64,000 nucleotides of DNA, taken from positions 4,590 through 68,589 of the IMG/VR virus record IMGVR_UViG_3300006169_000166; one strand, written 5' to 3'. Each line of letters starts with the position of its first letter. Position 1 is the first letter of the stretch. Both the position numbers and the translations under genes were made by a program. Below the pieces are notes generated by a model. It saw only the letters and a program-made list of their open reading frames with translations. It did no database searches and was not told the origin of the DNA. Shown here one piece after another: positions 2,718-64,000 of the stretch. The stretch is from a virus (lineage: Duplodnaviria > Caudoviricetes).

Positions 2718-3419
2718 TTAGCCGATGTTGAAGTCGTCTTGCGGAGCCGAAGCGGCGGGTTTCGGAGCGCCGCCCATGTCGTCCTGCGGGACGTCGACTT
2801 CGTCGAACGCCGCATCGACATCGACGCCGCGGCTCGCGAAGGCTTCGCCATCCTTGGCGAACTGGATCGCCTCGAGGCTGGCGTTGATGCGCGACTTCTT
2901 ACCGTTATCACCCACATAGCCGTAGATGCGAATGATCGCGTTCACATAGCAGCCGGAATAAGGCGCGTAGGGGTCGCCCTCGTTCAGTTCGGCGAAGCGG
3001 CCGTCGGCGCCCTTGCGCGGCCCGATGACCTTGACCGGCCGCTTCTTCGTCCCGGCCTTGATCTGGTTCCACTCGTCGAGCTTCACCGGACGGTTGGCGG
3101 AGACGTAAAGGCAGCCTGCATAACCGTCATAGAGCGCTTTCGCCTCGTTCGTCGCTGCATCGACCGGTTCGCCATCGCGCAGGCAAAGCTGGTCGGCGCC
3201 GAACGCGGGCGGCGATTGGCCCCAGGTATTGATCCGCGCCTTCGCCATCGCATCCTTGACGAGCTGAATCGTCGCGGCGTCGGTTTTCGGGATCAGCAGT
3301 GCGCAGTTGAAATTCTTGCCAGTCACATTCCCGGCGTCGTCCTTGCGGTCCTGCGGGTCGAACACCCGGAAGAACGACAGGCGCACGCCTTGCAGCTTCA
3401 CTTCAATATCATCGGCCAT
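2718..3419 (-). CDS. DUF2815-family ssDNA-binding protein
   Basis: VRLSF, YSGCYVNA, NASLEAIQFAKDGEAF motifs, acidic tail, position beside Cas4-like nuclease and Pol. Confidence 0.85.
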   Translation of the reverse strand: MADDIEVKLQGVRLSFFRVFDPQDRKDDAGNVTGKNFNCALLIPKTDAATIQLVKDAMAKARINTWGQSPPAFGADQLCLRDGEPVDAATNEAKALYDGYAGCLYVSANRPVKLDEWNQIKAGTKKRPVKVIGPRKGADGRFAELNEGDPYAPYSGCYVNAIIRIYGYVGDNGKKSRINASLEAIQFAKDGEAFASRGVDVDAAFDEVDVPQDDMGGAPKPAASAPQDDFNIG

Positions 3420-4605
3420 TCTCAATCTCCACTTCATCAAACTTCTGCTCGAGCGGCGCGATGGCCGGGCGAGCGTCCTGGTCGCTGACCAACACCGGCT
3501 TGCGTGAGCCGCGGCAGATCAGTTTCTCGATTGCGGCGAAATCCTCCGCCCCGAGCTCTTTCGACACCTGTGTCGGCGTCTTGATTCGCTTGCTGAACCG
3601 GCCGTCACCGAGCAGGGGCGCGAGTTGCGTGTCCGCCTGCTCGGGGTCGAACCACTTGTCGGGCGACTTGCGCCCTTCGACGGCCTTCAACCCTCCGGAG
3701 GGAAGGCCGCGCAACGCATCGTCGAGGTGCTGGTTGTGCAGCGTGTCGAGCCAGTTCTCGAACAATTTGCGGTGGCGCAGGATGTGCGCGCGGCGCTCCG
3801 GCGTCATACCCATCAGCGGCAGGAACGGCGGGGCGGCGATCGCGATGTCGTCGTCTATCTCGCCGAACTTGCTTCCGATAACGTCGAGCATGAACTCGTC
3901 GAAGGTCGGGCAGCCGCCTGGAGCGATACGGCGGCGGCACCATTTGCAACCCTTCTCGGTCGCCGCGCGAGGCGCAAACGGGTCCTGCGTCGCGAGGGAT
4001 GCTGCACGAGCCTGTTCCCCGAAGTCGAGCAGGTCGCCAAGCGTCGTGTACCACTCTCCCCCGCCGCCCGAGCAACGGGGCTGGTCGACGACCAGGAGGA
4101 AACGGGTGCTGCGCGCGCCGTGAGTCTCGCGGCAGTGCTTGTGCCAGAAGCCGAGCGCGTAGAGCATCATCTGCTTGTTCTCGACGGCCTCGACGGGCAG
4201 GCCCCTGCCCCACTTGAGGTCGTCGATGACGATTAGGTCCGGCAGGATAACGCCGCGGTCGAGCGTCCCGAACTGGTCGGGTCCGAGCCAGTGGGAAAGG
4301 TCGACGCGATGCTCGCCGAAGAAACGGCCGCCGAACGACCGGATATAGTTGATGCCGAACGCAAGTTCGTCGGCGTCGTCCACCGTCCATTCGAAGTTGA
4401 AGCCTTCGATGGTTCCCCGGTGTCCGATGAAATCGTAAGGATCGAGTCCGAGGTCGAGGCAGAGCTCGCTGATATGGTGCGCGAAGGTGCCCTCGGCGGC
4501 AAACTCGCTGGTATCGTCCGGGAGTCCCTCCTGCGCGGCAACGCTGCCGGCGCAGTTCATCCAGGTCTCGGCACCGGACGGAGAAAGTTTGGCGTGGGCG
4601 GTCAA
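3409..4605 (-). CDS. DUF2800 Cas4-like PD-(D/E)XK exonuclease
   Basis: HAKLSPS...C, AAEGTFAH, FGTLD, DLKWGRG, QMMLYALG, CKWC. Confidence 0.88.
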   Translation of the reverse strand: MTAHAKLSPSGAETWMNCAGSVAAQEGLPDDTSEFAAEGTFAHHISELCLDLGLDPYDFIGHRGTIEGFNFEWTVDDADELAFGINYIRSFGGRFFGEHRVDLSHWLGPDQFGTLDRGVILPDLIVIDDLKWGRGLPVEAVENKQMMLYALGFWHKHCRETHGARSTRFLLVVDQPRCSGGGGEWYTTLGDLLDFGEQARAASLATQDPFAPRAATEKGCKWCRRRIAPGGCPTFDEFMLDVIGSKFGEIDDDIAIAAPPFLPLMGMTPERRAHILRHRKLFENWLDTLHNQHLDDALRGLPSGGLKAVEGRKSPDKWFDPEQADTQLAPLLGDGRFSKRIKTPTQVSKELGAEDFAAIEKLICRGSRKPVLVSDQDARPAIAPLEQKFDEVEIENGR

Positions 4606-4829
4606 AGCCGACCCTCGTCGCGGGCGTTATTCAGATAGGTGACGACAGCTTCCGCAAACGCGGCCTCAGGGGAATCCGGGTCTAGCCGGTGTTGCGCAGT
4701 GACGATGTCATCCCAGAGCGAAGCCTCTCGGTCGCGCACTTCCTCGAGCTCGATGCACCGGCCACAGCGCGTTTCACCCAAGCGGGCTGTGTTGCCACAG
4801 CGGCAGGCGAGCTTTCCAGGTTCAGCCAT
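4602..4829 (-). CDS. Small Cys-rich hypothetical protein
   Basis: CxC...CxxC; coupled stop/start. Confidence 0.55.
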   Translation of the reverse strand: MAEPGKLACRCGNTARLGETRCGRCIELEEVRDREASLWDDIVTAQHRLDPDSPEAAFAEAVVTYLNNARDEGRL

Positions 4830-4916
4830 GTTTCGCTCCAAACGCGAGCGCCGCCATGCCGAGCGCGGCCGCAATGCGGTCGTTCAGGGACATGACGGCG
4901 CTCACCACCCCTCCGG

Positions 4917-5069
4917 TCAGGCTGACAGGAGTTCGATCAGATAGTCGGCACGGGCCGCCGCCAGCGCTGCGGGATCTTCCACTCCCGCAGTGCTGGCGGC
5001 GGCCTCGGCTTCCCACTTCTCGAACGCAGCGATCAGCTTGGACCGCGTGGTTTCGATGATCGACTCCAT
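4917..5069 (-). CDS. Small hypothetical protein (50 aa)
   Basis: MESIIETTRSK...IELLSA read manually; fills operon gap. Confidence 0.5.
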   Translation of the reverse strand: MESIIETTRSKLIAAFEKWEAEAAASTAGVEDPAALAAARADYLIELLSA

Positions 5070-5074
5070 GTCGA

Positions 5075-62545: not shown

Positions 62546-62577
62546 CACCCCGCCCGTCCAACTCAACCGTTGCGTGT

Positions 62578-62624
62578 GTTCTAATCACGCGAAAGTTGAT
62601 TTGCAAGCGGTGTTTCGATATTCA
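62578..62624. promoter_or_regulatory. Overlapping divergent promoters with palindromic operator
   Basis: Minus: TTGCAA-N17-TAGAAC with TCAC-N7-TTGA (62585-62599) in the spacer; plus: TTGATT-N17-TATTCA. Confidence 0.55.
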
Positions 62625-62735
62625 GCTTGGGACAGCATGGGACGACCTCACGGCGTCCTGTCCGGTCAGCGATGGAGGTGGTTATGAAGCGCTAATGGCT
62701 CGGCATCCGGAGGCCCACCGGACTTAAACAATCAC

Positions 62736-62770
62736 AGCCCCGGCCGCGAACCCCGCCGCCGGGGCTTTTT
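62736..62770 (+). terminator. Rho-independent terminator facing the integrase 3' end
   Basis: AGCCCCGG/CCGGGGCT stem plus T-tract on the plus strand. Confidence 0.75.
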
Positions 62771-62773
62771 GCT

Positions 62774-64000
62774 TCACCCGATCAGCCGCGCGAACTCTTC
62801 TTGCTGGTCGAGCCAGTCGGCCCACCATTGCAGCAGCCGGCGGCGCTGCGGCAGATATTCGGCGGCATTATAGGCGCCGCGCACCTTATTTTCCTCGACG
62901 TGGGCGAGGGCGCGCTCGATCCAGTCGGCATCCCACATCCGATCTTCAATGCCATCCCGCACGACGGTCGCGCTATTGGTGAGGGTCGAGAACGTGCTCC
63001 GGAAACCGTGAACCGTGGCCCGGCCGTGATAACCGAGCCGGTAGAGCGCATAGAGCATCGTATTCTCGCTGATGACGCCGCTCCTGGTGCGGCGCCCGAA
63101 TAGCAATGTCTCCCCGGGCCGCAGCTGCGCGACGCGGCGCCTGACGATCGCCGCTGCCTGGCGGGGTAACGGCACCAGATGCTCACGGTTCATCTTCATC
63201 CGCCCAGCGGGAACGCGCCAGGTCGCCGAGGTCGTGTCGAGATCCTCGAACTCTCTCTTGTCCATGAAGCGACTTTCCGCGGTGCGCGCGGCACAGAGGA
63301 TCGTCAGGCGAAGCGCGTCGACCGTGTCCTGTTCCTCGCCATATTCGTCGGAGAGCTTGCGCAGGAACGACCCCATGTCCTTGGGCTTGATGAAGGCGTG
63401 ATGCACTTCGGCGGGCGGCTTCTTGAGGGCATCGCGAATATCTGCCGTCGGGTCGCGGGCCTTCCAGCCGGCCGCGATCGCGAATCGGAAGATGCGGCCG
63501 CAAACGCCGTTCATCCGGGCCGGCAGTTCGGTCGCTCCACCTTTCTCGATCTTGCGAATCACCCGGAGCATGTCGGTCGGCTCGATCGTCCGGATGTCCT
63601 TGCTGCCCAGGTCCGGGAAAATCAGCCGCTCGAGTCGTCCCATCAGGACATCATAGTTGCGCTGCGTCCATTCCTCCCGCTGCGCTTCCATCCATTGGAG
63701 CGCGATAGTGCGGAAGGTAGCGTCCTCCTCTGCAACTCCGAACTTGCGTTGCTTGACCGGGTCGATGCCGACGGCGACCAGCTTGCGCACTTTCTCGTGC
63801 TCGCTGCGGACATCGCCGAGTTCGATGTCGGGATAGACCCCCAGCCCCATCGTCCGGCGCTTGCCGTTTAGCGTGAAATCGTACCGCCACCATTTCGCGC
63901 CGCTCGGCTGAACGAGCAGATAAAGGCCCTTCTCGTCGGTCAGACGGTAGGCCGAATCCCTGGGCTTGGCTTTGCGGATCGCGAGGTCGGTCAGTGCCAC
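62774..64000 (-). CDS. Tyrosine integrase (P4/IntA family with Arm DNA-binding domain)
   Basis: LTDLAIRKAKP, DEKGLYL, R...HGFR...LAH, YNAAEYL. Confidence 0.96.
   Translation of the reverse strand: MALTDLAIRKAKPRDSAYRLTDEKGLYLLVQPSGAKWWRYDFTLNGKRRTMGLGVYPDIELGDVRSEHEKVRKLVAVGIDPVKQRKFGVAEEDATFRTIALQWMEAQREEWTQRNYDVLMGRLERLIFPDLGSKDIRTIEPTDMLRVIRKIEKGGATELPARMNGVCGRIFRFAIAAGWKARDPTADIRDALKKPPAEVHHAFIKPKDMGSFLRKLSDEYGEEQDTVDALRLTILCAARTAESRFMDKREFEDLDTTSATWRVPAGRMKMNREHLVPLPRQAAAIVRRRVAQLRPGETLLFGRRTRSGVISENTMLYALYRLGYHGRATVHGFRSTFSTLTNSATVVRDGIEDRMWDADWIERALAHVEENKVRGAYNAAEYLPQRRRLLQWWADWLDQQEEFARLIG

Follow-up and report, generated by a model that had tools for sequence, protein, structure and literature searches.

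A short acidic Ile-Gly tag shared by unrelated DNA-handling proteins of one phage and its possible role as a docking signal

Short terminal address peptides on otherwise unrelated proteins are known from the cargo-loading peptides of encapsulins and from the capsid-targeting sequence of phage T4. The gp45 clamp tails of T4/RB69 (on gp43, gp55 and gp33) and the beta-clamp motif QL[SD]LF represent the case in which one short terminal peptide, borne by several unrelated DNA-transaction proteins, is read by one hub. Phage T7 gp2.5 and gp4 have acidic tails that make contact with the polymerase and the helicase and compete with the OB fold (PMC10359462). The present study concerns a peptide of this general kind in a 64-kb stretch of DNA (hereafter, the window; positions 4,590 to 68,589) of the 68.6-kb virus record IMGVR_UViG_3300006169_000166, which is labelled G000 in the comparisons. 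About 15 unrelated DNA-handling proteins of this phage bear the same short, acidic, helix-forming peptide ending in Ile-Gly, with the consensus acidic-Phi-x-x-[LA]-I-G (Phi, a hydrophobic residue).

A codon-usage model, with the record itself as its training set, was used to call genes and yielded 89 for the whole record. The ending -IG is found on 12 of the 89 proteins, where the frequency of the dipeptide inside proteins predicts 0.4 (binomial P 1e-14); -LIG is the end of eight proteins (0.09 expected, P 5e-14) and -[IV]G that of 16. Chance as a cause is ruled out (P ~1e-14). The same peptide also occurs at the N-termini of the portal protein and the small terminase subunit (TerS), and twice in the linker of the primase-helicase. 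All C-terminal peptides named in the initial annotation were found at the genes to which it had assigned them, and family annotation bore out its statement that the carriers are mostly DNA-transaction proteins. Two entries had to be revised. The GRLIG ending of a 48-aa protein (24131-24277) is present, but the protein is hydrophobic and membrane-like with no acidic residues, and this case may be a coincidence. The peptide DMDALIG, listed as the N-terminus of Dam, is real, but it belongs to an open reading frame (ORF) starting at 28494, in a frame other than that of the Dam body (28637-29131). An additional carrier, a 131-aa nuclease-like protein ending in ETLIG, is located just beyond the window. 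The comparison with host C-termini proposed in the same annotation was made with the 8.8-Mb genome of Bradyrhizobium, where five of the seven true [DE][DE][LF][LF]G-stop matches fall in a related 62-kb prophage. The tag is nearly confined to the prophage and is, therefore, a phage feature and not a host feature.

Within a genome, the tag evolves in concert. The comparison took in eleven related genomes or prophages, with Sphingomonas, Bradyrhizobium and Pseudomonas as named hosts, and most of them show C-terminal enrichment of related tags. In every alphaproteobacterial relative, proteins of the same kinds bear an acidic-hydrophobic tag at one end, in a genome-specific variant. The variants are ..LIG in G000 and G001, DDFxxLLG in G003 and G004, DFEDLIG in G005, DDFDxLL and DDFEDFL without Gly in G002, DP[LM]xD[IV]LG in G006, DDFAxLM[GA] in the Sphingomonas prophage G008, D[VL]DDLLG in the Bradyrhizobium prophage G009, DLxDLL[AGSN] in G010 and E[DE]LM(G) in locus L025; the Pseudomonas prophage G007 has simple C-terminal DDxL tails only. 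For twelve carrier families, identity over the last four residues amounts to 0.300 when different families of one genome are compared, 0.260 when orthologues from different genomes are compared and 0.189 otherwise; genome labels were permuted within families 5000 times, and the observed value was never reached (z=11). The tail of c5, a 191-aa protein of no known family, is near-identical to that of SSB, the single-stranded DNA-binding protein, in every genome examined, and orthologues of the 181-aa protein c30 in six genomes bear the variant of their own genome once or twice. Across 80 further loci with the polymerase, the tails of SSB, c5 and primase match locus by locus (LGLG/LGLG, DGLI/DGLI, DLGI/DLGI and a threefold DDLLG). 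A scan of viral contigs with the SSB alignment gave no match. The N-terminal tag of TerS was present in 7/7 complete genomes first compared, and portal proteins of relatives begin with MTDDFDALL, MGDSFDELLG or MSVSDPFNDVLG. The primase-helicase of the distant relative L137 (IMGVR_UViG_3300036770_003861) has the bacterial SSB C-terminal tip at its end (DGFDDIPF), which suggests that this lineage mimics the SSB tail of the host.

The tag is selected as protein, not as DNA. The 68-kb relative G001 (identity 63% for primase, 73% for portal and 36% for SSB) has 13 proteins ending in -IG, and 11 tagged window proteins, among those compared, have orthologues there with this ending; the SSB tail is kept in spite of the low identity of the orthologues, and the G001 primase-helicase ends in EEIDVIG. 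In the last eight codons of the eleven orthologous pairs, 25 of 88 codons differ synonymously, as in CTT ATC GGT versus CTA ATA GGG. The varied codon usage pointed out earlier was confirmed, with Leu written as CTG, TTG, CTT, CTA or CTC and Gly as GGC, GGA, GGG or GGT. Orthologues from twelve genomes share an identity of 0.26 over the last four residues, versus 0.12 in the preceding linker. The integrase family alignment has a variable insertion of 0-14 residues between the last conserved helix and the tag, with one member lacking the tag. An alternative-frame ORF nested in the cytosine-5 methyltransferase gene (dcm) ends in each genome's own variant (EFDSLIG in G000, DLDSLIG in G001, DDFDCLL in G002 and EFEALLG in G004), which also supports protein-level selection. 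The proposal of a phage-wide short linear motif acting at the protein level is upheld by the synonymous codons in orthologues, conservation beside indel-rich or disordered linkers, N-terminal, linker and tandem copies, and concerted evolution.

A start codon lies within 5 nt downstream of the tag-bearing gene or overlaps its end in 10/13 carriers, and several carriers end in GGATGA or TGATG; the word TGATC is complementary to part of the 16S rRNA 3′ end. The initial annotation had cautioned that GGATGA overlaps could explain some terminal Gly residues. Such an overlap accounts for GGA in 5/13 of the carriers' terminal Gly codons, not for the motif, and it was rejected as the sole cause, since no downstream gene is coupled to those of the integrase, SSB and the 131-aa nuclease, where the gaps are 228, 74 and 101 nt. 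A GATC/Dam site was likewise rejected, GATC being found everywhere (~900 copies).

There appear to be two related sub-classes of tag, both with an Ile-Gly end in the window. Sub-class 1 (DDFNIG, DEFAVIG and DAEAAIG in the window) seems to be an SSB-type acidic tail with a hydrophobic tip and is found on SSB, c5, the primase-helicase, the protein at the lambda-FI position and, in relatives, the DUF2800 exonuclease. Sub-class 2 seems to be a two-turn amphipathic helix, acidic-Phi-x-x-Phi-[IL]-Gly (D-Phi-x-x-L-I-G in the window), found on the integrase, AlpA, three methyltransferases, small early proteins and the N-termini of TerS and portal. The split is clean in Rhizobium phage RHph_X2_30, a phage classified in Casjensviridae: SSB, c5, primase and the FI-position protein terminate in ...[DE][DE][DE]I, and [DE]F.D[IV](L/F)G is found on one methyltransferase, five small proteins annotated without function and the portal and TerS N-termini. 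In the AlphaFold 2 (AF2) models, the SSB tail (residues 197-233) has a predicted local distance difference test score (pLDDT) below 50, about 35, and is disordered, and the integrase tag forms the end of a confident helix 383-407. As modelled, the tag looks like a Gly-capped two-turn amphipathic helix on a flexible end. The first helix of a helix-turn-helix has a similar pattern and was considered, but no second helix follows the tag.

We favour, with a probability of roughly 0.55, the reading that the peptide is a docking or address tag for one or two shared partners. These partners would read, in trans, portable short linear peptides that sit at the flexible ends of proteins and are maintained by peptide-level selection. 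Unrelated proteins of one genome change their tags together, which argues for a common factor acting in trans and for a reader that is probably phage-encoded and fast-evolving; a phage origin is also probable because the variants differ between phages of related hosts. A single hub could plausibly exist. The first candidates for the reader of sub-class 1 would be the untagged family-B DNA polymerase (116-2092) and the SF2 helicase, because the polymerase is always present and essentially never tailed, and by analogy with T7. The polymerase was found in 81/81 loci, with an acidic-tail fraction of 0.03 versus 0.84 for SSB, 0.71 for the exonuclease and 0.81 for c5. For the helix tag of sub-class 2, the large terminase subunit (TerL), the scaffold/protease and GapR were considered, and none was a good candidate reader. 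A broader version, a two-tag, co-evolving address code across Casjensviridae-type phages that tethers replication, recombination, methylation, integration/excision and packaging proteins to one phage-encoded, probably DNA-associated hub, is conceivable and, in our judgement, doubtful.

Several points weigh against docking to shared partners. Portal, TerS and integrase have no obvious reason to share the partner of SSB; the readers may number two or more, and some carriers may have none. The tags of the integrase and MT-A70 adjoin the folded domain, and their role could in part be structural. Covariation, GapR and complex-prediction attempts named no reader: the family-B polymerase modelled with the SSB core (1-200) and the primase linker (318-363) scored 0.15 versus a mark of 0.32, a value that counts neither for binding nor against it. 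A sister-pair test of association with tail type (61 non-redundant loci; separate discordant pairs, 12 for 'ends in Gly' and 22 for 'has an aromatic residue') gave no outstanding column in the polymerase, SSB core, exonuclease and primase alignments, and the discordant pairs are simply more diverged. GapR (window 27453-27722) is encoded by 11/11 alphaproteobacterial relatives. Its C-terminal helix ETYRIALG (pattern [DE][TL]Y..ALG) fits the tag pattern, its N-terminal extension has tag-like stretches in G006, G009, G010 and G011 (clear only in G010, MTDEDLLG), and the protein of RHph_X2_30 has an acidic tail. Given these extensions and this tail, GapR would be a carrier rather than an obvious reader.

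Four other explanations of function and one at the nucleotide level were weighed. Nearly all carriers bind DNA, and the tags could be cis-acting, DNA-mimicking autoinhibitory tails that fold onto each protein's own DNA-binding surface with no common reader; the competition of the T7 gp2.5 tail with the OB domain (PMC10359462) and the AT-hook-like KRGRP adjoining the TerS tag in relatives fit this explanation. However, it leaves unexplained why unrelated proteins share one variant per genome and orthologues differ between genomes, the SSB tail is undocked in the AF2 model (pLDDT ~35), and the glutaredoxin of G011 is also tagged, so that we consider such tails unlikely.

A degradation or handling signal for a protease or unfoldase adaptor (Lon or ClpXP from the host, or a factor of the phage), which would time the removal of a protein set, also needs a shared reader and would suit a tag that is terminal, exposed, common within a genome and placed on many regulators and enzymes. 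Its presence on the late stoichiometric portal and TerS proteins, the tandem copies and those inside the primase linker speak against this, and N-terminal and internal copies oppose a strict C-degron. Moreover, strong differences in variant between phages of similar hosts fit a conserved host protease poorly, and no tagged host proteins were found in the Bradyrhizobium genome. We regard a degron as quite unlikely.

Lower still is our estimate for a peptide that targets proteins to the procapsid or the packaging machine by binding to the scaffold/protease, to the inside of the capsid or to the terminase. The helix tag is carried most constantly by the N-termini of portal and TerS and by the FI-position protein, and the head genes are lambda-like (gpA-type TerL, S49 protease, gpE-type capsid); the lambda portal gpB starts with MKTPTIPTLLGPDG and loses its first 20 residues in maturation. 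Nevertheless, an 831-aa primase-helicase, SSB, integrase and three methyltransferases are implausible as capsid cargo, and the SSB-type tail marks replication proteins in the Pseudomonas relative and the cultured Rhizobium phage. On balance, capsid targeting is highly unlikely.

Conjugation through a C-terminal Gly, suggested in the initial annotation, is disfavoured. Ubiquitin-like conjugation requires a free C-terminal Gly, usually Gly-Gly, on a beta-grasp protein. Here, the Gly is single and the carrier folds are unrelated, the motif is also N-terminal or internal with residues following it, and Gly is missing at the C-termini of G002 (...DDFEDFL) and G010 (...DLLA), in G011 and in sub-class 1 of RHph_X2_30 (...DDDI). 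Finally, a nucleotide-level cause such as a translational-coupling or Shine-Dalgarno-like word (UGAUCGGAUGA), a recombination linker or a GATC-related site at gene ends, to which the closely spaced starts and GGATGA or TGATG endings lend some support, is extremely improbable and largely refuted by the free variation of Leu and Gly codons, the uncoupled carriers, the N-terminal and internal copies, the 15 antisense occurrences of the word [CT]TN-ATC-GG, and the relatives that write LLG, ILG, LM or FL with unrelated nucleotides.

The positions of the tags in the window are given in the table.

Table. Tagged proteins and the coordinates of their tags in the window.
Carrier	Tag	Position	Strand	Remark
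SSB (gp2.5/Enc34-type, gene 2718-3419)	C-terminal DDFNIG	2721..2738	-	
c5, 191 aa (gene 5075-5650)	C-terminal DDFNIG	5078..5095	-	
PrimPol-helicase linker	DGFDDIIG (aa 331-338) and DEFDAIIG (aa 345-352)	7161..7226	+	between PriCT_2 and VapE domains
PrimPol-VapE primase-helicase (gene 6171-8666, 831 aa)	C-terminal DEFAVIG	8643..8663	+	
c30, 181 aa (gene 24277-24822)	C-terminal DDDIMALIG	24793..24819	+	
184-aa protein (gene 27943-28497)	internal EAFANLIG and C-terminal IDIESLIG	28432..28494	+	
ORF from 28494 (upstream out-of-frame part of Dam-family gene)	N-terminal LDMDALIG	28506..28529	+	
Dam-family methyltransferase (gene 28637-29131)	C-terminal IKELVG	29111..29128	+	
MT-A70 methyltransferase (gene 29128-29742)	C-terminal DPILELIG	29716..29739	+	
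149-aa protein at lambda-FI position (gene 49685-50134)	C-terminal DDAEAAIG	49688..49711	-	
Portal (gene 53110-54831)	N-terminal FDIDALIG	54793..54816	-	followed by Pro/Ala-rich linker of ~30 aa
TerL (gene 55117-57309)	C-terminal IEDLAERLG, doubtful member	55120..55146	-	ending conserved TerL-family-wide, Pseudomonas prophage included
TerS (gene 58937-59641)	N-terminal NDIDTIIG	59609..59632	-	
Cytosine-5 methyltransferase, C-terminal half (ORF 59646-60995)	C-terminal EPFRALIG	59649..59672	-	
Alternative-frame ORF nested in dcm (61095-61706)	terminal QEFDSLIG, then stop	61098..61121	-	
AlpA-family regulator/excisionase (gene 62282-62545)	C-terminal PELEGLIG	62285..62308	-	
Tyrosine integrase (gene 62774-64000)	C-terminal EEFARLIG	62777..62800	-	

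By its predicted gene content, the phage is a temperate siphovirus of Chi-like or Casjensviridae type. The G+C content of the window is 65%. When 49 kb of the window was compared by megablast with 50,697 phage records, there was no match, and no near-identical genome was found. The nearest cultured relatives by portal are Achromobacter phage AchV4, Rhizobium phage RHph_X2_30, Ruegeria DSS3-P1-type phages and Xylella phage Sano. Besides the head and packaging genes mentioned above, a decoration protein and the portal belong to the lambda-like set. The replication module comprises the family-B DNA polymerase, the gp2.5/Enc34-type SSB, the DUF2800 exonuclease, the PrimPol-VapE primase-helicase and the SF2 helicase; three DNA methyltransferases, GapR, an AlpA-family protein and a tyrosine integrase are also encoded. 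A look-up of c5 in the ESM Atlas returned viral clusters only and no named family, and a PHROG scan of FI-position proteins gave no reliable match. In the FI-position protein (49685-50134), a long acidic (EGEGS)n-like repeat linker precedes the tag. In the TerS of relatives (G002 4312-5067, RHph_X2_30 49744-50406), the AT-hook-like KRGRP stands directly after the tag, and the window TerS has GGLPRR at this place. Two regions are poor in gene calls: about 2 kb at 9193-11186 has no ORF passing the coding test and a lower G+C content (0.60), and no confident genes were called at 57545-58658, between the small ORFs 57309-57545 and 58658-58912. At the record terminus outside the window (G000 contig 1-1584, L007), a 527-aa GGDEF-EAL protein (E 1e-31 and 2e-72), a cyclic-di-GMP enzyme, is encoded; its origin is either element cargo or host flank.

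The alternative-frame segment in dcm is conserved in G000, G001, G002 and G004 (...SLSQVLV.GSIP..YFLSS.ACAGILRRAEKRGK.LP...). It spans approximately 80-110 codons (window 61095-61330, minus strand; also in dcm of G001 L004, G002 L037 and G004 L047) and overlaps the conserved main-frame motif VIII region (QRRKR.F.VASARDGFDP.EIL.EF). The segment looks like genuine dual coding or programmed frameshifting. The dcm gene of the window (59646-61959) is itself split: the 621-aa Dcm of G001 aligns to two frames, with residues 1-254 matching ~61119-61878 and residues 332-621 matching ~59649-60434, and the two ORFs overlap near a G8 run at ~61071-61078. The Dam-family gene is likewise found in two frames, the ORF from 28494 (MNAPLDMDALIG...) and the Pfam Dam match, which starts at profile position 29; the G001 counterpart of this ORF begins with MSEVLDIEALIG. 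The Dam-family split (28494-28640 / 28637-29131) would reflect a frameshift, an error in the sequencing or a repeat that is phase-variable.

Should there be one or two readers, the tags would reveal a previously unrecognised network linking phage DNA replication, modification, lysogeny and packaging, and the genome-specific variants could limit the mixing of modules between co-infecting relatives. Were the address-code reading true, the system would be a viral counterpart of the clamp/SSB interactome, with a private code changing from phage to phage and the DNA-transaction machinery assembled on, or passed between, the same platform. The tag also helps to recognise real genes and frames and supports translation of the overprinted dcm ORF. 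It marks small uncharacterised proteins as members of the DNA-transaction set, and it offers a portable handle for protein recruitment in engineered phages. Cultured relatives, namely Rhizobium phage RHph_X2_30 and the Ruegeria DSS3-P1-type phages, make the system testable.

The literature searched gave no account of a phage-wide tag system for this group of phages. The likeness to encapsulin cargo-loading peptides and the T4 capsid-targeting sequence lies in the flexible Pro/Ala/Gly linkers, the HK97-fold capsid lineage and the tagged portal N-terminus. In contrast to those systems, the carriers here are mostly replication and modification enzymes, which are unlikely cargo, and the tag has no similarity to LTVGSL-type peptides. 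With the bacterial SSB tip (DDDIPF), the tag shares an acidic run with a hydrophobic anchor, a disordered tail and protein contacts in DNA metabolism; however, the sequence differs and the polarity is reversed, many carriers being found here as opposed to one carrier and many readers in bacteria. Unlike clamp-binding peptides, no window tag has the Gln or the spacing of QL[SD]LF, QxxLxxFF or (S/T)LDFL, and the tag varies between close phages, unlike the conserved pocket of the host clamp. No clamp family was detected among ~45 proteins scanned, which were part of the gene set.

The closest established precedent is that of the T7 docking tails. The window SSB is of the gp2.5 type (PHROG 112, 2.9e-32; PF10991 Enc34_ssDNA-bd, 2.4e-25) and has a disordered acidic tail ...QDDFNIG with a hydrophobic tip. 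Similar to T7, the primase-helicase is tailed too (DEFAVIG and the two internal copies), and in relatives the primase tail is the same as the SSB tail. The differences are that ~15 proteins are tagged here and not two, integrase, AlpA, methyltransferases, TerS and portal included; that the tag is also N-terminal or located in linkers; that its helix tip ends in Gly, as opposed to the terminal Phe of T7; and that the polymerase is of family B, without a thioredoxin-binding domain. In scale, placement and carriers, this tag system goes well past the T7 precedent.

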